Positions 574-64,000 of a stretch of 64,000 nucleotides of DNA are shown in pieces. Origin of the DNA: Candidatus Latescibacterota bacterium. Its GTDB lineage: Bacteria > Latescibacterota > UBA2968. Where the stretch lies: contig OZ240241.1 of the NCBI GenBank assembly GCA_965198115.1, forward strand, positions 5,120,001-5,184,000, given 5' to 3'. How positions within the stretch are numbered: the stretch's first letter is position 1; the number at the start of each line of letters is the position of its first letter. The notes under the pieces are model-generated. The model was given only the letters and a program-made list of their open reading frames with translations, was not told the origin of the DNA and did no database searches. Made by a program: the position numbers and the translations under genes.

Positions 574-2631
574 GAGATCCTCAGTACTCGATGGCGAATC
601 GGAAGACGAAAGCGCGACCGGGCTGAGGGATGAGGGAGTTTCTGAATCCCAAGCTTCTGCCGGAGAAAACGTCCCCGCTGTCTGCCTGTTCGACCCCCGG
701 ATGGAAATAGTCGTGGTCGAACAGATTCGAAATCTTGAGGGTAAGCCAAAAGGGGCCGTAGGTGTAGCTGAGCGCACCGTGAGCGACCAGATAGGGATCG
801 ATCGTCTTGCCCTGATTCCTTAGTGGATTCTGGGAATAGAGTTCGCGTCTCTCTACGAGGTTCCCGCGTAGGTTCAGACCCGAGGACAGGGGGAGGTTGA
901 CGCCGACGTTGATCTTGTGGGGCGCGATGTCGCCTAGGTCCGTGTCACCGACGACCCAATCGCCAGCGGCGTGGTCGAAGTGGATGCTGCTCGTGACGCT
1001 GGTATAGGTGTAGTTGAAGAAGCCGGATATGTCTGTTGCATTCTGGACGAAATTCGGGATGGCGTATCGAGCGCGGTATTCGATTCCCCATATGTCACGA
1101 CTTCCGGCGTTTTCCGCTTCTTCTTTAATGACGTTGTCGTAGTGCGAGAAAAAGAGGGAGACGTCGTGAAACGAGTGCTCGGTCTGCACCATCCCGATGG
1201 CTTCGATGTTCCGGACTTCTTCGGGCTTGAGGTCGGGGTTTGCGAGCCTGCCGTTCCATCCACCCCACAGCAGGATGGGCGCGGGCTCCTGAAAAGCCTC
1301 CCCATAGAGGACTTTGAACGCGCTTCGCTTGGAGAATCTGTAGATCGAGGAGATCCTCGGATTGATTGACCGCCCGTAGAGGGAGTTGTGGTCGATCCTG
1401 ACTCCCGCGTTGAACCGGAAGGGGTCCCTTACCCAGATTCCCTGAACGAAGCCACCGATATCCTCCGTAATAGCCAGGTTGTTGGGTGGCATGTTCGGGT
1501 TCGGTGGCGCAGGGATGAGGTAGTTGGCATCGCTGCTGTGTCCGATTCCGGCGCCGAAGCCGTGAGGCCCCGGATCGTTCGATGCCACGGTGGAACTAAA
1601 GGCGTTCCAATACCCTGGGATGTCGTAGGCCTTGGTGAGTTCCTTCCGCTCGAATTTGAACCCACCCGTCAGGACGTGGGGACCGACGTTGGCCTCGAAC
1701 TGCTGTTTGAACAGCCAGCTGTTACTGATCGAGTTCCATTGCGTCAGGCTGATGAAGGAGTCCCCCTCGTTACCGGCGCGCCAGTCCGGCAACGCTTCGG
1801 GCCAACCACCCCACGTCCGGCTTTTTCGAAAAGAGAGGAGGGACTTGCTCTTTATGGGGTCAGTGACCTGTCGCTCGGACTCTGCGTAGACATTCGAACC
1901 CGATGTATTCCAAAAAACGTTGTTCTGAACCCGATCCGCGGCGTACTGAGGTCCATAGCCCTCCTTCCGCACCCATCGCACGAACCCAAGTTTGACACCG
2001 CGATAGCTCACACTTCCGATTACTCCGTTGTCGTCCGACGGATCGTGGTAGGTTCCGAAATTTCGGTTTCGATGTTCGTGATCGAGAATGGGGCCCCAGG
2101 TCTGCCGATCCCCGTAGAGGTTTGGGCTGATGAATCCGAATCGGTTGGAGAGATTCGGCTCGTCGCTTCTGAACACGCGACCCGACACGTGGTAGGCGAC
2201 TTCGCCAATTCTTCCTCGCAATGCCGCGTCGACACTTCCCGTGTTGTAGCTGCCCCCGTGAATACCGACATGGGCTCGATTGCCATCTTGATCAGACTCG
2301 GTTCCGTCGTACGTGACGATGTTGACGATTCCGAGGAAGGCATTCGGTCCGTAAATGGCCGAAGCGGGTCCGTAGAGGACTTCGACTCGCTTGATACTCG
2401 ACAAGGGGTATCTGCGACTGAACACTGCCTGGTGCGTCCAGAGATGGTTGTCTACCTGATTGTTGATCATCAGGAGCGTGCGTTGCGTCGAAGGATGGCG
2501 GTAGCCTCGCTGGTAGGCGTAGAGATAGGGGATCCCGTTGGCGAGGATCGTGTCGAAACCCGGGAGGTCGACGATGATTTCGGCCAGGTTCGTGTAACCT
2601 CGCTGTCGGATGTCCTGTGCGGTTATAACAA

Positions 2632-4014
2632 GGCTCTATCCGGGTTTCTCAACGGTGAAACTATAGAATGACAAGGTCATAGATCGTTCCCTACGCTTGG
2701 TTGTGTGTGTAGGACAATCAAAGCGAAGGGGGTGCGACCTATGACCGGGAGCAGATTACTATCGGAACTGCTGAGATTCAAGGGGTTCCGTGTTGTCAGC
2801 TGGTGGTTTGAGGGGAGAAGCTGCTTCGTCATCGCCGTAAAGCCCCATAAGAATGGTTGTTGTTGTCCGGAGTGCGGCCGTCGAGGTAAAATCGTCCGCA
2901 CAATGCCCCATCCGCGTCGGTGGCGTGACATTCCGGTGTGCGGGTGGAGGGTCTGGCTTCTCTACCATCCTCGGGAGATTCGGTGTCCTACCCACGGTCG
3001 TGTGGTCGAGGAGATTCCGTGGGCGGAGCGGTTGCGCTACTGCCAGACCATGACGCAGAAGGCGGCGTCCGAGTTACTGCGCATCTCTGCCTCGACGCTG
3101 TCGGATCTCCTTCACCGATCCATCACGCGGCTTCGTGAAGGTCATCGTATCCGAGGGCTCAAAACCATCGGGATCGACGAGATCTCCTACGCCAAGCGTC
3201 ACAGGTACGCCACGCTCGTTTACGATCTGGACCGCTCCTGCGTGGTGTGGGTTGGCCGCGGCAGGGCGCGTAAAACGATCGATCGGTTCTTCACAGAGGC
3301 TCTCAGTCCCTACCGGAGATCCAAGATCGAGTGGGCCTGCTGCGACATGAGCGAAGCTTACATCGGAGCCATCCAGGAACACTGTCCGAATGCCAAGCTG
3401 GTCCTCGATCGCTTTCACATCGTCAAGGCTCTCAATGCCGCCGTTGACGAGGTCCGTAAGGACCAGTGGCGTAAAGCTGCCCCGGATGAGCGCAAAGCCA
3501 TGAAGGGCCTCCGATGGCTCCTCTACCGGCACTCAGCGACACGCTCCAGAGGGGATACTCGGACACTCAAAGCACTGGAGAAGGCGAACTACCGAATCTA
3601 TAGAGCCTGGAGACTCAAGGACGAGTTCGAGCAGTTCTGGGAATACAAAGCGCCCTGGGCTGCCGAACGCTTCCTGAAATGCTGGACGACGTCCGCACTC
3701 AGAAGTCGACTTGAACCCCTGCGAAAGTTCGTCAGGACCCTGCGACAGCACTTCTTCGGCGTCCTCGCATTCGTGAACACGCGTCTTACCAACGCCATCG
3801 CCGAAGGCCTCAACCGAATCGTCCAAATCGTCAAGAACCGAGCCAGCGGATTCCGCACACTCGACGCATTCAACGATATGATCTTCCTTACCGTCGGAGA
3901 CATAAACATCCCTGAGCAGATTCCGAAGAGGTTCCGCACACTCTAACCGCGCCCCCATGCCAGGAACCACGGCACCTTCACCCACTCATCTCGTTGAGAG
4001 ATCCGGATATAGCC
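2632..4014 (+). mobile_element. ISL3-family IS, copy 1 (1383 bp; 36-bp internal deletion allele)
   Basis: Terminal inverted repeats GGCTCTATCCGGGTTTCTCAACG / GGCTATATCCGGATCTCTCAACG. 8-bp target duplication TATAACAA at 2624-2631 and 4015-4022. Confidence 0.97.
2741..3946 (+). CDS. ISL3-family transposase (lacks 12 aa FSRVTYRFEYAM)
   Basis: Zinc finger CPECG...CPTHG, GIDE, CCDM, LDRFH and TNAIAEGLN motifs. ATG 2741 preferred; alternative GTG at 2705. Confidence 0.95.
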   Translation: MTGSRLLSELLRFKGFRVVSWWFEGRSCFVIAVKPHKNGCCCPECGRRGKIVRTMPHPRRWRDIPVCGWRVWLLYHPREIRCPTHGRVVEEIPWAERLRYCQTMTQKAASELLRISASTLSDLLHRSITRLREGHRIRGLKTIGIDEISYAKRHRYATLVYDLDRSCVVWVGRGRARKTIDRFFTEALSPYRRSKIEWACCDMSEAYIGAIQEHCPNAKLVLDRFHIVKALNAAVDEVRKDQWRKAAPDERKAMKGLRWLLYRHSATRSRGDTRTLKALEKANYRIYRAWRLKDEFEQFWEYKAPWAAERFLKCWTTSALRSRLEPLRKFVRTLRQHFFGVLAFVNTRLTNAIAEGLNRIVQIVKNRASGFRTLDAFNDMIFLTVGDINIPEQIPKRFRTL

Positions 4015-4538
4015 TATAACAACCAGTGCCGCGGGTGCTTCGAAGATGCTCTCTTCGATTCCCGAGGCGAGCGACACGTCTACCTTCATGAGTTCCGACA
4101 GGGGGGTCGATAGGAGTTCCTCGAGGTCCTGGGCGGATGCGGCGGAGCTGAGAAGAATCAGTAGACAGATGATGGTGGACAGAGGACGGTATACGGTGGA
4201 CCCTGTAAAGGGCTTTGCCCGTTTGGCTGTCGGCTTTCGGCGGTGGGCGGTTGGCAGTGGAGACGGCTTTGCCCCCATCGCCGAAGCTACGGCAGACAGG
4301 CGGTGGACCCCTCGACTGCGCTCTTCTCGCTTCGCTCTTTTCGCTAGGCTCGAAGCAGGCCTCCGCAGGTTCAGGCAGGCTCTGGACGGTGGGCGGAAAG
4401 AAAAACGCGTCATTCCACTACGATTGTGGCTCTTGAAATGGATTTGGAGACCTATCGGGTGGGTGGTCTACCACCGTTCTGGCGGGAAGTGTTAAAACAG
4501 AACCTATCTTCTTTGTAAACCGTAAGATGGAGGACGGC

Positions 4539-13624: not shown

Positions 13625-14916
13625 GGGTTCGGAATAAATAAACGGTCGATCTCAATGTTGAGCCATTGGCCGGATCGTGTAGTTCCAGTCGCCGTGGAAA
13701 TCGTGCGGAGTGAGATCGATTTGGGTCATCTGTTCATCGGTCACCTTGACCCCGTTAGGGTAGGGTCGCTTGTCGATCTCGGAGCGTACTCGGAGACCGG
13801 CTTGAGTGGTCGTTCCGGCAATGAGATTCACGGTTGCAGCCAGGCTGACCAGGGGCTTGCCTCGCCCAGTTCATAGCGATGAAGGAGAACAGGCGATGTT
13901 CGATCTTGTTCCACTTACTAGTGCCAGGAGGGTAGTGGCATACGGTGATCGTCAGGCCAGTGCGATTCGCAAAGCGCTGCAGCTCCCACTTCCACAGCCG
14001 CGTCTTGGCACCGTTGCTGCCGCCTGCGTCCGCCGTGATTAGCAGATGCGTCGAAGTGCCGTAGGCGGGCCGTCCCATGTTCTTCCACCAACTTCGGATC
14101 GCATTCACGGCGAAGCTGGCCGTGTCGTGATCGATACCGACACTTACCCAGCCTTCATCACGGCTCAGATCATACACTCCATAAGGGATCGCCTTGCCCT
14201 GAGCAGGCACTATGAAATCGTGTACCTTCACACGCTCCGGGTCTCCCTTGGGTCGCCATTCTCGGCCAGGATTCTTGAAGTCGCCGATCAACTCTTTCTT
14301 CTTGGTGTCCACCGAGATAACGGGAAGGCCCTGCTGCTGCTGCTGGCTAATCCGATCATCGAGGTAAACGAACTGAGCGTCCCTCCGGGTGTGCAGATCC
14401 CTCCCTTGTCTTCCGATTCGCCTGCAGCGTGTAATCGTGTTCGTGCAGGAGATTGGCAACGATCCTGGGGCTCACCGAATGCCCCATCGCTTGCAACTCG
14501 GCGGCCAGTTTGCGAGTGCTCTTCGATGTCCATCTCAGAGGATTGTCGTCAGGCGACCCCGCAGTCGTTGGCTCGACCAGATCATTCAGGTCCTGCCACA
14601 GCGTCGGGTCCGTGTCGGCCTTCCGCTTACGACCGCCGCCTGGACGCCGGATGCGAGCCGGGTCCAAAGGTTCGTCCGACCTCAACTCCTGAATGCCACG
14701 AAAGATCCGCTCTCTGGACATTCCTGTCGCCAGAGCCACAATCGCGATCCCACCGTGACCCAACGCTTCGGCTTCCGTGGCGGCCCACAGACGACGCGTG
14801 CGTTCCGTCAGCACCGGAGCCAAGGCTTCATACTTCGTTCGGAGAGTTTCGACGTCCACACTCCGAGCGTAAGATCATTACCTTGAAAAGTGCAGCACTT
14901 ATTTCGTGGCAAACCC
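13625..14916 (-). mobile_element. ISAzo13-family IS, copy A
   Basis: Imperfect inverted ends GGGTTCGGAATAAATAA / GGGTTTGCCACGAAATAA. Flanks are TAA (left) and TTA (right). Near-identical to 49034-50318. Confidence 0.9.
13652..14859 (-). pseudogene. ISAzo13 transposase with two frameshifts
   Basis: RIRRPGGGRK, LRWTSKS, ISVDTKKKE, ADAGGSNG and YPPGTSKWNKIEHRLF motifs. 2-bp deletion near 14393 relative to copy B, plus an extra base near 13865. The true C-terminus ...FHGDWNYTIRPMAQH* is out of frame. Confidence 0.9.
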
Positions 14917-47613: not shown

Positions 47614-49033
47614 GGCTCTATCCGGGTTTCTCAACGGTGAAACTATAGAATGACAAGGTCATAGATCGTTCCCTACGCTTGGTTGTGTGTGTAGGACAAT
47701 CAAAGCGAAGGGGGTGCGACCTATGACCGGGAGCAGATTACTATCGAAACTGCTGAGATTCAAGGGGTTCCGTGTTGTCAGCTGGTGGTTTGAGGGGAGA
47801 AGCTGCTTCGTCATCGCCGTAAAGCCACATAAGAATGGTTGTTGTTGTCCGGAGTGCGGCCGTCGAGGTAAAATCGTCCGCACAATGCCCCATCCGCGTC
47901 GGTGGCGTGACATTCCGGTGTGCGGGTGGAGGGTCTGGCTTCTCTACCATCCTCGGGAGATTCGGTGTCCTACCCACGGTCGTGTGGTCGAGGAGATTCC
48001 GTGGGCGGAGCGGTTCTCTCGGGTGACGTATCGCTTCGAGTATGCCATGCTGCGCTACTGCCAGACCATGACGCAGAAGGCGGCGTCCGAGTTACTGCGC
48101 ATCTCTGCCTCGACGCTGTCGGATCTCCTTCACCGATCCATCACGCGGCTTCGTGAAGGTCATCGTATCCGAGGGCTCAAAACCATCGGGATCGACGAGA
48201 TCTCCTACGCCAAGCGTCACAGGTACGCCACGCTCGTTTACGATCTGGACCGCTCCTGCGTGGTGTGGGTTGGCCGCGGCAGGGCGCGTAAAACGATCGA
48301 TCGGTTCTTCACAGAGGCTCTCAGTCCCTACCAGAGATCCAAGATCGAGTGGGCCTGCTGCGACATGAGCGAAGCTTACATCGGAGCCATCCAGGAACAC
48401 TGTCCGAATGCCAAGCTGGTCCTCGATCGCTTTCACATCGTCAAGGCTCTCAATGCCGCCGTTGACGAGGTCCGTAAGGACCAGTGGCGTAAAGCTGCCC
48501 CGGATGAGCGCAAAGCCATGAAGGGCCTCCGATGGCTCCTCTACCGGCACTCAGCGACACGCTCCAGAGGGGATACTCGGACACTCAAAGCACTGGAGAA
48601 GGCGAACTACCGAATCTATAGAGCCTGGAGACTCAAGGACGAGTTCGAGCAGTTCTGGGAATACAAAGCGCCCTGGGCTGCCGAACGCTTCCTGAAATGC
48701 TGGACGACGTCCGCACTCAGAAGTCGACGTGAACCCCTGCGAAAGTTCGTCAGGACCCTGCGACAGCACTTCTTCGGCGTCCTCGCATTCGTGAACACGC
48801 GTCTTACCAACGCCATCGCCGAAGGCCTCAACCGAATCGTCCAAATCGTCAAGAACCGAGCCAGCGGATTCCGCACACTCGACGCATTCAACGATATGAT
48901 CTTCCTTACCGTCGGAGACATAAACATCCCTGAGCAGATTCCGAAGAGGTTCCGCACACTCTAACCGCGCCCCCATGCCAGGAACCACGGCACCTTCACC
49001 CACTTCATCTCGTTGAGAGATCCGGATATAGCC
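47614..49033 (+). mobile_element. ISL3-family IS, copy 3 (1420 bp)
   Basis: Terminal IRs; ATAAATAA at 47606-47613 and 49034-49041. Confidence 0.97.
47723..48964 (+). CDS. ISL3-family transposase (full length)
   Basis: As copy 2 with a few substitutions. Confidence 0.95.
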   Translation: MTGSRLLSKLLRFKGFRVVSWWFEGRSCFVIAVKPHKNGCCCPECGRRGKIVRTMPHPRRWRDIPVCGWRVWLLYHPREIRCPTHGRVVEEIPWAERFSRVTYRFEYAMLRYCQTMTQKAASELLRISASTLSDLLHRSITRLREGHRIRGLKTIGIDEISYAKRHRYATLVYDLDRSCVVWVGRGRARKTIDRFFTEALSPYQRSKIEWACCDMSEAYIGAIQEHCPNAKLVLDRFHIVKALNAAVDEVRKDQWRKAAPDERKAMKGLRWLLYRHSATRSRGDTRTLKALEKANYRIYRAWRLKDEFEQFWEYKAPWAAERFLKCWTTSALRSRREPLRKFVRTLRQHFFGVLAFVNTRLTNAIAEGLNRIVQIVKNRASGFRTLDAFNDMIFLTVGDINIPEQIPKRFRTL

Positions 49034-50318
49034 ATAAATAAACGGTCGATCTCAATGTTGAGCCATTGGCCGGATCGTGTAGTTCCAGTCGCCGTGGAAA
49101 TCGTGCGGAGTGAGATCGATTTGGGTCATCTGTTCATCGGTCACCTTGACCCCGTTAGGGTAGGGTCGCTTGTCGATCTCGGAGCGTACTCGGAGACCGG
49201 CTTGAGTGGTCGTTCCGGCAATGAGATTCACGGTTGCAGCCAGGCTGACCAGGGGCTTGCCTCGCCCAGTTCATAGCGATGAAGGAGAACAGGCGATGTT
49301 CGATCTTGTTCCACTTACTAGTGCCAGGAGGGTAGTGGCATACGGTGATCGTCAGGCCAGTGCGATTCGCAAAGCGCTGCAGCTCCCACTTCCACAGCCG
49401 CGTCTTGGCGCCGTTGCTGCCGCCTGCGTCCGCCGTGATTAGCAGATGCGTCGAAGTGCCGTAGGCGGGCCGTCCCATGTTCTTCCACCAACTTCGGATC
49501 GCATTCACGGCGAAGCTGGCCGTGTCGTGATCGATACCGACACTTACCCAGCCTTCATCACGGCTCAGATCATACACTCCATAAGGGATCGCCTTGCCCT
49601 GAGCAGGCACTATGAAATCGTGTACCTTCACACGCTCCGGGTCTCCCTTGGGTCGCCATTCTCGGCCAGGATTCTTGAAGTCGCCGATCAACTCTTTCTT
49701 CTTGGTGTCCACCGAGATAACGGGAAGGCCCTGCTGCTGCTGCTGGCTAATCCGATCATCGAGGTAAACGAACTGAGCGTCCCGATCCGGGTGTGCAGAT
49801 CCCTCCCTTGTCTTCCGATTCGCCTGCAGCGTGTAATCGTGTTCGTGCAGGAGATTGGCAACGATCCTGGGGCTCACCGAATGCCCCATCGCTTGCAACT
49901 CGGCGGCCAGTTTGCGAGTGCTCTTCGATGTCCATCTCAGAGGATTGTCGTCAGGCGACCCCGCAGTCGTTGGCTCGACCAGATCATTCAGGTCCTGCCA
50001 CAGCGTCGGGTCCGTGTCGGCCTTCCGCTTACGACCGCCGCCTGGACGCCGGATGCGAGCCGGGTCCAAAGGTTCGTCCGACCTCAACTCCTGAATGCCA
50101 CGAAAGATCCGCTCTCTGGACATTCCTGTCGCCAGAGCCACAATCGCGATCCCACCGTGACCCAACGCTTCGGCTTCCGTGGCGGCCCACAGACGACGCG
50201 TGCGTTCCGTCAGCACCGGAGCCAAGGCTTCATACTTCGTTCGGAGAGTTTCGACGTCCACACTCCGAGCGTAAGATCATTACCTTGAAAAGTGCAGCAC
50301 TTATTTCGTGGCAAACCC
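49034..50318 (-). mobile_element. ISAzo13-family IS, copy B (outer 9 bp of left end missing)
   Basis: Near-identical to 13634-14916; right flank TAA. Confidence 0.9.
49052..50261 (-). pseudogene. ISAzo13 transposase with a C-terminal +1 frameshift
   Basis: 368-aa ORF goes out of frame at MNW-G-RGKPL (~49265). The proper tail ends at 49052. Confidence 0.85.
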
Positions 50319-50349
50319 TAAGCGGTGTAGGGGAACGCGCGATACGCAT

Positions 50350-50439
50350 TGTCACCCCTGCATGCTTCTGAGCCGGGGCCAAATTTGATCTTCGCAAAGG
50401 TTAAAATGGATCTCGGCTCAACACACCGCCGGGATGACA
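50350..50439. repeat. ~90-bp REPIN/MITE-like repeat (TGTCACCCC...GGGATGACA), copy 1
   Basis: Homologous copies at 51842-51927 and 58244-58335. Confidence 0.8.
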
Positions 50440-50451
50440 CCCCTCGTCTTC

Positions 50452-50623
50452 CTGGTTCCCAAGCTCTGCCTGCGAATCCCTAATTGACGACATTGACGCT
50501 TGCCCTCGTGCTCTGCACGGGGCGTGGTGTTCAACACCGGAGGTTCTTTGTCCCCGTGCGGAGCACGGGGACGAGCGGGGGACGTTGTCAAGGGACGATC
50601 CAGGGCAGAGCCCCTGGAACGAG
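50452..50623. repeat. Nested REP cassette 1
   Basis: Outer hairpins at 50452-50480 and 50599-50623 enclose inner CCCCGTGC hairpins at ~50501-50523 and 50550-50575. Confidence 0.7.
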
Positions 50624-51756: not shown

Positions 51757-51841
51757 TGTGAACTCCCCTGTATCCGATCGGGCACAGCACGACGAGGAAG
51801 CCCGCTGAAGCGGGCTAAGATGGAATCTCCGCGACAAACAT

Positions 51842-51960
51842 TGTCACCCCGGTATGCTTCTGAGCCGGGGCCCATTTTGATCTTCGCGAAAAGCTAAAAT
51901 GGATCCCGGCCCAACACACCGCCGGGAATTCCTAGCTCCCAGGCTCTGCCTGGGAACTCC
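51842..51960. repeat. ~90-bp repeat copy 2 followed by a solo REP hairpin
   Basis: TGTCACCCCGGTATGCTTCTGAGCCGGGG...ACACCGCCGGGA, then CTCCCAGGCTCTGCCTGGGAAC. Confidence 0.75.
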
Positions 51961-53512: not shown

Positions 53513-53745
53513 CTGGTTCCCAGGCTCTGCCTGGGAACACCCCACAGAAGGAAGGCGCCACTCTTGCCCCCGTGCTCAGCACGGGGGCGCTCGGTTGTGA
53601 ATCCAGATTCTCTGTCCCCGTGCAACCACAGTGAAGAGCACGGGAGGCCGGCGTGACGGTGTTAGATTCTCTGTCACCGTGCAGGGCACGGGGACGAGCG
53701 TACGCCGTGGCACTTAAGCATTCCAGGGCGGAGCCCCGGAACGAG
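53513..53745. repeat. Nested REP cassette 2
   Basis: GTTCCCAGGCTCTGCCTGGGAAC ... GCCCCCGTGCTCAGCACGGGGGC ... GCACGGGGACGAG ... TTCCAGGGCGGAGCCCCGGAACGAG. Confidence 0.7.
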
Positions 53746-53801
53746 GTGTTGCAGTGTTTCTCGCTGCGCTCTCTGCGTCCTCTGCGTTGAAAGGGGTTTC
53801 C

Positions 53802-56053: not shown

Positions 56054-56258
56054 CCCGGGCTCCCGCCCGGGCCCATTCAAGTTGCGAGACGCTCCGCTCT
56101 CCCCCGTGCTCCGCACGGGGGCACATTAATGTCCAAATGCTACCACAAGATTTCACTTCGGTGATCCTGCTCGATTCGCCAAAGTGTCCCCGTGCGGAGC
56201 ACGGGGACGAGCGAAGGTGGTGGTATTTGGACGTTGCGGGGCAGAGCCCCGCAACGAG
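56054..56258. repeat. Nested REP cassette 3
   Basis: CCCGGGCTCCCGCCCGGG ... CCCCCGTGCTCCGCACGGGGG ... GTCCCCGTGCGGAGCACGGGGACGAG ... CGTTGCGGGGCAGAGCCCCGCAACGAG. Confidence 0.7.
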
Positions 56259-56296
56259 GCCCCTAACTATCTTCGATGGCACGAGAACATTGTTCG

Positions 56297-58243: not shown

Positions 58244-58335
58244 TGTCACCCCGGTACGCTTCCTGGCCGGGCTCCATCTGCCCCTTTCGCAAAGAAGAAA
58301 AATGGATCCCGGCTCAAAAGCACACCGGGATGACA
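58244..58335. repeat. ~90-bp repeat copy 3
   Basis: TGTCACCCCGG...AAAATGGATCCCGGC...CCGGGATGACA. Confidence 0.75.
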
Positions 58336-60583: not shown

Positions 60584-60910
60584 ATGGCTTCCCGTTTTCT
60601 TCCCTTCACGCAAACGGACCCTTCCGACACCGCCACGGCACTCGCCGCTCGATTCGCAGAGGACGGATACCTCTTCGTCAAGAGCTTGATCGACAAACCG
60701 AAGATCGATCGGATCAGCGAGCGCATCACTGAGGAACTGAAGGCTCACGGCTTCGTCACTCCAGACAGCACCTCCATCCCGATCTGGACCGGCAAGGCCC
60801 CCGAGTCCGATGACGTTCTTCCTGAAGGACCGATCATCACCGCCATCGCCGAGACTGGCGTGCTGAGCGACCTGTCCCGCTCGCCCGAGCTCATCGTGCT
60901 TCTTAAAAAA
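60584..60910 (+). pseudogene. PhyH family dioxygenase, 5' part, interrupted by the ISL3 tandem array
   Basis: ARFAEDGYLFVKSLID motif; RBS AGGAG; the frame runs into the IS at 60911. Confidence 0.8.
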
Positions 60911-62294
60911 GGCTATATCCGGATCTCTCAACGAGATGAAGTGGGTGAAGGTGCCGTGGTTCCTGGCATGGGGGCGCGGTTAGAGTGTGCGGAACCTCTT
61001 CGGAATCTGCTCAGGGATGTTTATGTCTCCGACGGTAAGGAAGATCATATCGTTGAATGCGTCGAGTGTGCGGAATCCGCTGGCTCGGTTCTTGACGATT
61101 TGGACGATTCGGTTGAGGCCTTCGGCGATGGCGTTGGTAAGACGCGTGTTCACGAATGCGAGGACGCCGAAGAAGTGCTGTCGCAGGGTCCTGACGAACT
61201 TTCGCAGGGGTTCAAGTCGACTTCTGAGTGCGGACGTCGTCCAGCATTTCAGGAAGCGTTCGGCAGCCCAGGGCGCTTTGTATTCCCAGAACTGCTCGAA
61301 CTCGTCCTTGAGTCTCCAGGCTCTATAGATTCGGTAGTTCGCCTTCTCCAGTGCTTTGAGTGTCCGAGTATCCCCTCTGGAGCGTGTCGCTGAGTGCCGG
61401 TAGAGGAGCCATCGGAGGCCCTTCATGGCTTTGCGCTCATCCGGGGCAGCTTTACGCCACTGGTCCTTACGGACCTCGTCAACGGCGGCATTGAGAGCCT
61501 TGACGATGTGAAAGCGATCGAGGACCAGCTTGGCATTCGGACAGTGTTCCTGGATGGCTCCGATGTAAGCTTCGCTCATGTCGCAGCAGGCCCACTCGAT
61601 CTTGGATCTCCGGTAGGGACTGAGAGCCTCTGTGAAGAACCGATCGATCGTTTTACGCGCCCTGCCGCGGCCAACCCACACCACGCAGGAGCGGTCCAGA
61701 TCGTAAACGAGCGTGGCGTACCTGTGACGCTTGGCGTAGGAGATCTCGTCGATCCCGATGGTTTTGAGCCCTCGGATACGATGACCTTCACGAAGCCGCG
61801 TGATGGATCGGTGAAGGAGATCCGACAGCGTCGAGGCAGAGATGCGCAGTAACTCGGACGCCGCCTTCTGCGTCATGGTCTGGCAGTAGCGCAACCGCTC
61901 CGCCCACGGAATCTCCTCGACCACACGACCGTGGGTAGGACACCGAATCTCCCGAGGATGGTAGAGAAGCCAGACCCTCCACCCGCACACCGGAATGTCA
62001 CGCCACCGACGCGGATGGGGCATTGTGCGGACGATTTTACCTCGACGGCCGCACTCCGGACAACAACAACCATTCTTATGTGGCTTTACGGCGATGACGA
62101 AACAGCTCCTCCCCTCAAACCACCAGCTGACAACACGGAACCCCTTGAATCTCAGCAGTTTCGATAGTAATCTGCTCCCGGTCATAGGTCGCACCCCCTT
62201 CGCTTTGATTGTCCTACACACACAACCAAGCGTAGGGAACGATCTATGACCTTGTCATTCTATAGTTTCACCGTTGAGAAACCCGGATAGAGCC
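60911..62294 (-). mobile_element. ISL3-family IS, copy 4 (1384 bp; 36-bp deletion allele)
   Basis: Terminal IRs; TTAAAAAA at 60903-60910 and 62295-62302. Confidence 0.97.
60980..62185 (-). CDS. ISL3-family transposase (12-aa deletion)
   Basis: Same deletion as copy 1. Confidence 0.95.
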   Translation of the reverse strand: MTGSRLLSKLLRFKGFRVVSWWFEGRSCFVIAVKPHKNGCCCPECGRRGKIVRTMPHPRRWRDIPVCGWRVWLLYHPREIRCPTHGRVVEEIPWAERLRYCQTMTQKAASELLRISASTLSDLLHRSITRLREGHRIRGLKTIGIDEISYAKRHRYATLVYDLDRSCVVWVGRGRARKTIDRFFTEALSPYRRSKIEWACCDMSEAYIGAIQEHCPNAKLVLDRFHIVKALNAAVDEVRKDQWRKAAPDERKAMKGLRWLLYRHSATRSRGDTRTLKALEKANYRIYRAWRLKDEFEQFWEYKAPWAAERFLKCWTTSALRSRLEPLRKFVRTLRQHFFGVLAFVNTRLTNAIAEGLNRIVQIVKNRASGFRTLDAFNDMIFLTVGDINIPEQIPKRFRTL

Positions 62295-62303
62295 TTAAAA
62301 AAG

Positions 62304-63723
62304 GGCTATATCCGGATCTCTCAACGAGATGAAGTGGGTGAAGGTGCCGTGGTTCCTGGCATGGGGGCGCGGTTAGCGTGTGCGGAACCTCTTCGGAATC
62401 TGCTCAGGGATGTTTATGTCTCCGACGGTAAGGAAGATCATATCGTTGAATGCGTCGAGTGTGCGGAATCCGCTGGCTCGGTTCTTGACGATTTGGACGA
62501 TTCGGTTGAGGCCTTCGGCGATGGCGTTGGTAAGACGCGTGTTCACGAATGCGAGGACGCCGAAGAAGTGCTGTCGCAGGGTCCTGACGAACTTTCGCAG
62601 GGGTTCAAGTCGACTTCTGAGTGCGGACGTCGTCCAGCATTTCAGGAAGCGTTCGGCAGCCCAGGGCGCTTTGTATTCCCAGAACTGCTCGAACTCGTCC
62701 TTGAGTCTCCAGGCTCTATAGATTCGGTAGTTCGCCTTCTCCAGTGCTTTGAGTGTCCGAGTATCCCCTCTGGAGCGTGTCGCTGAGTGCCGGTAGAGGA
62801 GCCATCGGAGGCCCTTCATGGCTTTGCGCTCATCCGGGGCAGCTTTACGCCACTGGTCCTTACGGACCTCGTCAACGGCGACATTGAGAGCCTTGACGAT
62901 GTGAAAGCGATCGAGGACCAGCTTGGCATTCGGACAGTGTTCCTGGATGGCTCCGATGTAAGCTTCGCTCATGTCGCAGCAGGCCCACTCGATCTTGGAT
63001 CTCTGGTAGGGACTGAGAGCCTCTGTGAAGAACCGATCGATCGTTTTACGCGCCCTGCCGCGGCCAACCCACACCACGCAGGAGCGGTCCAGATCGTAAA
63101 CGAGCGTGGCGTACCTGTGACGCTTGGCGTAGGAGATCTCGTCGATCCCGATGGTTTTGAGCCCTCGGATACGATGACCTTCACGAAGCCGCGTGATGGA
63201 TCGGTGAAGGAGATCCGACAGCGTCGAGGCAGAGATGCGCAGTAACTCGGACGCCGCCTTCTGCGTCAAGGTCTGGCAGTAGCGCAGCATGGCATACTCG
63301 AAGCGATACGTCACCCGAGAGAACCGCTCCGCCCACGGAATCTCCTCGACCACACGACCGTGGGTAGGACACCGAATCTCCCGAGGATGGTAGAGAAGCC
63401 AGACCCTCCACCCGCACACCGGAATGTCACGCCACCGACGCGGATGGGGCATTGTGCGGACGATTTTACCTCGACGGCCGCACTCCGGACAACAACAACC
63501 ATTCTTATGTGGCTTTACGGCGATGACGACGCAGCTTCTCCCCTCAAACCACCAGCTGACAACACGGAACCCCTTGAATCTCAGCAGTTTCGATAGTAAT
63601 CTGCTCCCGGTCATAGGTCGCACCCCCTTCGCTTTGATTGTCCTACACACACAACCAAGCGTAGGGAACGATCTATGACCTTGTCATTCTATAGTTTCAC
63701 CGTTGAGAAACCCGGATAGAGCC
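62304..63723 (-). mobile_element. ISL3-family IS, copy 5 (1420 bp)
   Basis: Terminal IRs; TAAAAAAG at 62296-62303 and 63724-63731. Confidence 0.97.
62373..63614 (-). CDS. ISL3-family transposase (full length)
   Basis: As copy 3 with private substitutions. Confidence 0.95.
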   Translation of the reverse strand: MTGSRLLSKLLRFKGFRVVSWWFEGRSCVVIAVKPHKNGCCCPECGRRGKIVRTMPHPRRWRDIPVCGWRVWLLYHPREIRCPTHGRVVEEIPWAERFSRVTYRFEYAMLRYCQTLTQKAASELLRISASTLSDLLHRSITRLREGHRIRGLKTIGIDEISYAKRHRYATLVYDLDRSCVVWVGRGRARKTIDRFFTEALSPYQRSKIEWACCDMSEAYIGAIQEHCPNAKLVLDRFHIVKALNVAVDEVRKDQWRKAAPDERKAMKGLRWLLYRHSATRSRGDTRTLKALEKANYRIYRAWRLKDEFEQFWEYKAPWAAERFLKCWTTSALRSRLEPLRKFVRTLRQHFFGVLAFVNTRLTNAIAEGLNRIVQIVKNRASGFRTLDAFNDMIFLTVGDINIPEQIPKRFRTR

Positions 63724-63730
63724 TAAAAAA

Positions 63731-64000
63731 GGCTATATCCGGATCTCTCAACGAGATGAAGTGGGTGAAGGTGCCGTGGTTCCTGGCATGGGGGCGCGGT
63801 TAGAGTGTGCGGAACCTCTTCGGAATCTGCTCAGGGATGTTTATGTCTCCGACGGTAAGGAAGATCATATCGTTGAATGCGTCGAGTGTGCGGAATCCGC
63901 TGGCTCGGTTCTTGACGATTTGGACGATTCGGTTGAGGCCTTCGGCGATGGCGTTGGTAAGACGCGTGTTCACGAATGCGAGGACGCCGAAGAAGTGCTG
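63731..64000 (-). mobile_element. ISL3-family IS, copy 6 (partial, runs off the window)
   Basis: Right IR at 63731 and the transposase 3' end (stop at 63800-63802). Confidence 0.95.

Follow-up and report, generated by a model that had tools for sequence, protein, structure and literature searches.

Three copies of an ISL3-family insertion sequence are arranged head-to-tail within a PhyH-like gene, and this stack was probably built by three ordinary ISL3 insertions that each hit one scarce A/T-rich target or a duplicate of it. The stack is real as far as the assembly can show, and the process is known from other elements. The analyzed stretch of 64,000 nucleotides, hereafter the window, comprises positions 5120001-5184000 of a single-contig 8.43-Mb genome with a G+C content of 59%.

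Anatomy of the stack in the PhyH-like gene

The 5' part of the interrupted gene (109 codons, 60584..60910, plus strand) ends with TTAAAAAA, the left-hand copy of the 8 bp that were originally targeted, as read directly from the sequence (60903..60910, plus strand). It is followed by ISL3 copy 4 (60911..62294, minus strand), 1384 bp long with a 36-bp in-frame deletion, a 9-bp spacer, TTAAAAAAG (62295..62303, plus strand), the 1420-bp copy 5 (62304..63723, minus strand), a 7-bp spacer, TAAAAAA (63724..63730, plus strand), and copy 6, the first 270 bp of which lie inside the window (63731..64000, minus strand). Copy 6 has a total length of 1417 bp and ends at genome position 5185147 (window-equivalent 65147), 1,147 bases past the window. 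The first-pass annotation had counted at least three copies and had pointed to a final target copy and the rest of the gene further to the right. The assembly contains exactly three, all co-oriented and spanning 4.25 kb as a whole stack, and copy 6 is indeed followed, 1.15 kb past the window, by TTAAAAAA and the remaining 233 codons (genome 5185156-5185857). When the stack and one duplication are removed, a single open frame of 342 codons emerges that is split after codon 109. Its C-terminal part matches PhyH (E 8.7e-12), and PhyH-like homologues in related genomes reside in open frames of mostly about 260-420 codons. An orthologue of the host gene with an empty site was found in none of 24 genomes, the best match being 40% over part of the gene. 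The first insertion alone had already disrupted the PhyH-like gene.

Both spacers were assigned from the sequence and by reverse peeling, i.e., by removing the copies one after the other. TTAAAAAAG represents the right duplication of copy 4 overlapping the left duplication of copy 5, TAAAAAAG, and the right 8-bp duplication of copy 5 consists of TAAAAAA plus the G with which copy 6 begins. As originally proposed, serial insertion at a regenerated 8-bp target accounts for the stack, with perfect duplications on reverse peeling, and the landing of copy 5 on the flank of copy 6, the terminal G of which it uses, is likewise supported. The idea that the stack records the order of insertions holds in part. 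Perfect 8-bp peeling can proceed in three orders (6-5-4, 6-4-5, and 4-6-5); copy 6 precedes copy 5 in every one of them, but the place of copy 4 is free. If one mismatch is tolerated, every one of the six orders becomes compatible. The class of mismatch required for this occurs in 4 of 149 solitary copies, and the insertion of copy 6 before copy 5 is therefore strongly favored rather than proven. The stack keeps just part of its insertion order.

Copy 5 carries an intact transposase gene (425 aa from a GTG start, 62373..63650, minus strand) for a protein with a Zn ribbon, an HTH, and a DDE_Tnp_ISL3 domain. The protein matches PF01610 (DDE_Tnp_ISL3, E 1.4e-67), PF13542 (HTH_Tnp_ISL3, E 5e-9), and, slightly below the cut-off of 25.5 bits, PF14690 (Zn_ribbon_ISL3, E 3e-5, 24.7 bits). 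The terminal inverted repeats are imperfect and 23 bp long, with 20 of 23 end bases matching in the 1420-bp copy 5. Elements of the ISL3 family range from 1.3 to 1.6 kb. On the basis of its domains, its inverted repeats and size, and its 8-bp A/T-rich duplication, the element is a member of this family. The transposase reading frame of copy 4 (413 aa, 60980..62221, minus strand) is missing 12 residues from its HTH_Tnp_ISL3 region, and copy 6 has a 3-bp deletion, located outside the window, that converts DRFH, which we take to be part of the catalytic insertion in this transposase, into DRY. Judging from these two changes, activity may have been lost in copies 4 and 6. In reactive dimers of the IS30/IS911 type, the junction is a highly active substrate for transposition and has a promoter; a consensus scan detected no promoter across either junction of the ISL3 stack. 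It returned two promoter-like sites, which lie within the region of the ORF start in copies 4 and 5, compared with 1.4 in shuffled sequences.

Target use, stacks, and alleles across the genome

A BLAST search retrieved 269 pieces of the element, 226 of them full length, with 344 kb of the genome covered. Among 194 solitary two-ended copies, 126 are flanked by a perfect 8-bp duplication and 23 by one with a single mismatch; duplications of 7, 9, and 10 bp were seen in six, three, and one cases, respectively, and 35 copies have none. In 121 of the 126 perfect duplications, six to eight positions are A/T. The target is an 8-mer rich in A/T and weakly flanked by CGC...GC, and all-A/T 8-mers number just 3,278 in 8.09 Mb. 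Two targets are themselves present in multiple copies. In one of them, the same 8-mer lies close to one end of an ISAzo13-family element and is filled in 24 of its 76 copies (another count gave 25), in both orientations (14:10), and a second repeated target is occupied in 12 of 38.

The genome harbors 20 stacks with 22 junctions, including two trimers and never more than three copies, and all 22 junctions are head-to-tail; an orientation-free pattern search likewise gave 22. Reverse peeling yields perfect 8-bp duplications for nine of the 20 stacks (10 junctions, the stack in the PhyH-like gene included) and duplications with one mismatch for one more. In four further stacks (five junctions), the duplication of one member is perfect or has one mismatch and the outer flank has been lost or exchanged. 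Sixteen of the 22 junctions thus fit serial re-insertion and six do not, and one mechanism for all stacks can no longer be maintained. In three junctions the spacer does not match the stack's own target, which is perfectly duplicated. Two junctions have 5-bp spacers (genome 427467 and 3712422), the length given for the joint of ISL3 circles in PMC5559704, and a single one, with a 10-bp spacer between identical alleles, falls outside the other classes. Spacers of 5 bp are documented for two of 22 chromosomal junctions and for a related ISL3 element in a metagenome record (L010), in assemblies in which free circles are invisible. The spacer TTTTTTATT is present in two of the foreign-spacer stacks and also in a third stack of the serial type, and the second members of the two foreign-spacer stacks are the sole two carriers of one haplotype. 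Taken together, the shared spacer and the shared haplotype point to movement of a dimer as a unit.

The co-orientation of the three copies and their status as different alleles, both noted in the first reading, were confirmed. Copy 4 has the 36-bp deletion, which is shared by 5 of the 226 full copies; the C-terminus reads FRTR in copy 5 and FRTL in copies 4 and 6; and the 3-bp deletion of copy 6 occurs in 2 of the 226 (copy 6 and one other). Eight variants distinguish copies 4 and 5 and eight distinguish copies 5 and 6, and all 10 variants in the three copies recur in copies at other loci. The 226 full copies fall into 179 haplotypes, and 55 of 66 pairs of common variants fail the four-gamete test, i.e., all four combinations are present, so the alleles must be called mosaic genome-wide. 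Neighbors within a stack usually carry unrelated alleles (distances from 0 to 9, against a background mean of 5.46). Nevertheless, in 3 of 19 neighbor pairs the two copies are separated by no more than one variant, as compared to 2% in the background, and we therefore take some stacks elsewhere to be self-copies or converted. Copies 5 and 6 have rare alleles in common with the two members of a stack at genome position 6262693, in swapped order, and the spacers of both stacks are locally templated. Such sharing arose in 7 of 3000 permutations in a post hoc comparison; independent arrivals do not account for it. Within stacks, rare-allele sharing was observed twice as against 0.5 expected (P 0.09). 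At the base that adjoins the right end of the element, where donor bases might be carried over, rare-allele sharers showed no excess of flank sharing (0.319 versus 0.303, 170 pairs, a comparison of low power).

Scarce targets and competing explanations

In order to judge the number of stacks against target frequency, we fitted target models to the perfect sites of solitary copies (126, or 109 if only unique ones are counted), with the IS-free genome as background; these models take no account of selection and under-fit hot sites. They give an effective target number of 2,500-4,300, and in five fits only 19-81 sites genome-wide score above the target in the PhyH-like gene. The three dimers with 8-bp spacers occupy sites of ranks 28, 51, and 168, and shifted-register dimers occupy sites of ranks 1,474-15,269. 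For 245 insertions, 18-24 re-hits are expected in both orientations and 8.8-11.8 in the co-oriented arrangement. The 16 serial junctions exceed the latter figure with P values of 0.02 (Poisson), 0.04 (simulation), and about 0.12 (another fit, by hand), so that the suspected excess of stacks over expectation (16 versus 9-12) stands at P 0.02-0.12, depending on the fit. If all 18-24 re-hits were steered head-to-tail, P would be 0.41. At least one triple appeared in half of 400 simulations and at least two in 17%.

The null is conservative, because the models under-predict the two neutral multi-copy targets about threefold (24 observed versus 7-9, and 12 versus 2-4, in unique-site fits). Calibration on the 36 occupied multi-copy sites gives 7.3 expected co-oriented re-hits and 14.5 in all, compared with one clear and one ambiguous re-hit at these sites (P about 0.02 by hand), figures to be read in the knowledge that some of the occupants were perhaps copied with their host element and that collapse deletes stacks. 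From the model fit and this calibration it follows that a regenerated site is usable, but not that it is superior to a naive one. The notion of a specially self-propagating landing pad, which went along with the initial description, is not supported: the number of stacks lies within about twofold of the scarcity null, and occupied multi-copy targets are re-hit below expectation. The pad is regenerated, but special attractiveness is not shown.

The course of events that we favor can be outlined as follows. The element would move by way of a circle whose joint is 5 bp long, and each insertion would duplicate the target and leave two usable copies in DNA that is already dispensable, such that a second and a third insertion would probably be neutral. 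As about 245 insertions would compete for effective sites that number no more than a few thousand, a certain number of re-hits would be expected. Half of these would be inverted and create a 2.8-kb palindrome with arms of 1.4 kb only 7-9 bp apart, which is likely to be lost or to remain unassembled, and purging of inverted re-hits would leave head-to-tail stacks only. Stacks are likely to be transient, either through recombinational collapse or through movement as a two-copy unit, and collapse of shifted stacks is a putative source of the 7-, 9-, and 10-bp duplications in 10 solitary copies. Annotated IS "duplications" of these lengths may thus be scars of collapsed stacks.

Orientation deserves particular attention. 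Neighboring copies 20 bp-5 kb apart are oriented alike in 16 cases and oppositely in 16, whereas none of the 22 junctions is inverted (P 2e-7 if orientation were free). A genome-wide search for inverted repeats with arms of at least 30 bp and spacers of at most 20 bp yielded none, and the tightest inverted repeat with arms of at least 100 bp has a spacer of 233 bp. One inverted pair in the genome is spaced by 241 bp. SbcD is encoded in the genome, with a score above the family cut-off, and SbcCD of E. coli is described as cutting a 246-bp interrupted palindrome (PMC3315005). Probably, inverted stacks are lost in the cell or in assembly, and this is our preferred reading; remnants of inverted stacks were not identified in the genome. 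The counts themselves fit purging and orientation-specific insertion beside IS ends alike and cannot separate the two.

The latter mode of insertion would imply that the end of a resident IS recruits the transposase and fixes the newcomer head-to-tail, as in IS30, yet with duplication of 8 bp. It would explain why 22 of 22 junctions are head-to-tail, it brings the 16 serial junctions into agreement with the 18-24 re-hits expected in total, so that no loss need be assumed, and it is in line with IS30, for which targeting of inverted repeats is stated to yield IRL-IRR junctions exclusively (PMC9333248). The 5-bp joints at 427467 and 3712422 show ends attacking near other ends, and the surplus of shifted registers points in the same direction: a 1-bp shift is found in 10 of 16 serial junctions as compared to about 10-15% given by the models, fits in which the true register of a naive site receives just 58% of the weight. 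However, the 36 occupied multi-copy targets, with one clear and one ambiguous re-hit instead of 7.3 or 14.5, speak against recruitment by IS ends, no excess is left after calibration, and the genome-wide lack of tight palindromes already explains the orientation. We consider such end-directed insertion unlikely. Also unlikely is a wider proposal according to which resident IS ends steer the transposase to insert head-to-tail and one base out of register, yet with a full 8-bp duplication, dimers are mobile two-copy units, and the polar mismatches in the right-end duplication are donor bases brought along by the circle. This would amount to a third targeting mode, intermediate between the random use of hot spots and end joining as in IS30.

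If homologous recombination had enlarged the stack, either through unequal crossing-over or through a circle that re-integrated into a resident copy, the allele differences would have arisen later by gene conversion. The mosaic alleles (179 haplotypes among 226 copies and the four-gamete failures) are compatible with this route, and the three stacks elsewhere with foreign spacers imply that recombination or unit movement builds some stacks. In the PhyH-like gene, however, the spacers are locally templated and unlike each other (9 versus 7 bp), whereas unequal exchange repeats an identical junction, and integration of a circle would import a 5-bp joint from another locus (PMC5559704). Recombination is therefore extremely improbable as the origin of this stack. 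The original argument against unequal crossing-over stands in so far as junctions of 9 and 7 bp exclude its simple form; the part of it that relied on different alleles is weaker, the alleles being mosaic. An artefact, i.e., an over-expanded repeat or joined strain variants, is very unlikely as well. It could be suspected in a single-contig assembly with an estimated contamination of 5.1%, in which repeats present at least five times make up 1.1 Mb, the more so as the exact junction pattern is found as an IS junction in no other species-representative genome. On the other hand, a unique host gene continues in frame on both sides, the variants are common to other loci and singleton substitutions are mostly C>T or G>A (31 of 43), unlike read errors, the spacers of many stacks obey the geometry of an 8-bp duplication, and like junction types occur in two independent metagenome records.

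Relation to known tandem elements

Tandem dimers formed by double insertion have been described for the Drosophila P element, hobo, and R1 in rDNA (McGurk and Barbash, 10.1101/158386), and bacterial dimers with target duplications are attributed in the same source to Dalrymple 1987 and Prudhomme 2002. As portrayed there, the tandems of P element, hobo, and R1 resemble the ISL3 stack in that complete elements are arranged head-to-tail with an 8-bp copy of the target duplication in between, and for P element and R1 also in that each newcomer has its own duplication, just as the ISL3 stack peels perfectly. P element and R1 tandems are reported to form preferentially near a preferred target; the highly ranked site in the PhyH-like gene and those of the dimers with 8-bp spacers agree with this, and the shifted-register dimers of ISL3 match it only partly. 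In contrast to the accounts of these three elements, the ISL3 case is bacterial, its spacers of 7, 8, and 9 bp stem from shifted registers, and its trimers arose from separate insertions without unequal exchange, with arrays of at most three copies. Arrays produced by unequal crossing-over differ more clearly, as the junctions of the ISL3 stack (9 and 7 bp) do not repeat an identical one.

Dimers of copy-out-paste-in elements are covered in PMC9333248 for (IS30)2, IS21, IS911/IS2/IS3/IS150, and IS256; ISL3 is classed there as a copy-out-paste-in family and is absent from the families listed there as dimer-forming. Dimers of the IS30/IS911 type share the exclusive IRL-IRR head-to-tail arrangement (22 of 22 for ISL3, although loss of palindromes predicts the same). 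According to this source, they have the short reactive spacer of a circle (2 bp in IS30) and result from end-to-end attack without a separate duplication, whereas the ISL3 stack has spacers of 9 and 7 bp and a full 8-bp duplication around each newcomer; a spacer of the circle type is confined to just two other junctions in the genome. Within the ISL3 family, the ISL3-like fosB transposon, with inverted repeats of about 25 bp and a flank-derived 5-bp circle junction, shares the 8-bp A/T-rich duplication with the element of the stack (PMC5559704). This source also cites IS1411 and ISPst9 as family members. Compared to the known ISL3 elements portrayed there, the present one stands out by its roughly 245 copies on a single chromosome and its 20 stacks.

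A search at the level of titles and abstracts, with most subscription journals outside its scope, found no published ISL3 stacks. The genome extends tandems formed by double insertion to this poorly studied family and provides a clean example from nature, with controls inside the genome itself, of how an IS burst saturates scarce targets: about one third of two multi-copy targets are filled, and re-hits show up as stacks. It also offers genome-level hints on the ISL3 mechanism, namely the 5-bp joints, the polar mismatches in duplications, and the dimers that may move as units. Neither a new system nor a host function is revealed.

A close copy of the transposase was detected in none of 40 related genomes (best 33% identity), and matches to the junction pattern in 4 of 167 other genomes of the phylum and one in a genome collection have no transposase nearby. 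The closest relatives found are ISL3 proteins from metagenome records with 62-72% identity. In one such record (L009), a 331-bp mini-element is located next to a full element, and its 8-bp left flank is repeated in the 9-bp spacer.

Polarity of the target duplications

Among the 194 two-ended ISL3 copies that lie outside head-to-tail stacks genome-wide, mismatches between the two copies of the 8-bp target duplication are polar: 12 of 23 affect the base immediately next to the right (GGCTAT) end and 4 the base next to the opposite end; the four bases nearest the right end hold 19 of the 23. As these mismatches are not only polar but also arise at a rate far higher than that of substitutions within the element, they suggest that donor bases are brought along at insertion. 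A lineage test of such carry-over among the ISL3 copies was negative, the test being a weak one. A mutS gene was found in the genome.

Joints, stacks and rearrangements between copies

ISL3–ISL3 joints of 5 bp, the type expected of a circular transposition intermediate, occur at genome 427467, at genome 3712422 and in the independent metagenome record L010 (56-60). At genome 3712422 the spacer is identical to bases 1-5 of the duplication that belongs to the left copy, and the pair has outer flanks that differ from each other, implying that this joint stems from an end-targeted rearrangement. An identical 9-bp junction is present in three stacks (genome 174130, 467238 and 1644045), two of which occupy unrelated, perfectly duplicated targets and have second copies with the same unique haplotype; the dimer containing this junction has likely moved as a composite. 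The members of another dimer (genome 6262693-6265536) have rare alleles in common with copies 5 and 6 of the three-copy stack that begins at window 60911, with their order swapped. Reciprocally swapped flanks in three pairs of copies (genome 5366047/6892475, 4843291/4855006 and 2745963/3281238) are evidence for past rearrangements between ISL3 copies. A derivative without positions 439-1238 is present in four copies with intact ends and separate targets (genome 2171797, 2305031, 3712427 and 6094442) and would be a non-autonomous form mobilised in trans.

Multi-copy targets and a possible recent burst

An ISAzo13-family element (PF07592; window 49034-50300 and 13634-14700) has 76 copies genome-wide, in 24-25 of which the subterminal TTATTTAT is occupied by ISL3, in both orientations; one such case lies in the window, at 47614-49033. 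Many of these nested copies carry the end variants 9C>T or 10C>T, and they may be moved together with their host element. ISL3 is also present in 12 of the 38 genomic copies of a second multi-copy element end, which may be similar to IS1380-type termini.

A search of 40 relatives turned up no close homologue of the ISL3 transposase, which suggests that the burst was recent and specific to this lineage. At 8.4 Mb, the genome is larger than those of all 30 family relatives listed (3.6-6.5 Mb), and repeats of at least five copies make up about 1.1 Mb of it. The window also contains short imperfect intergenic repeat families (50338-50623, 51830-51927, 53672-53746, 56185-56259 and 58286-58330), which appear REP-like.
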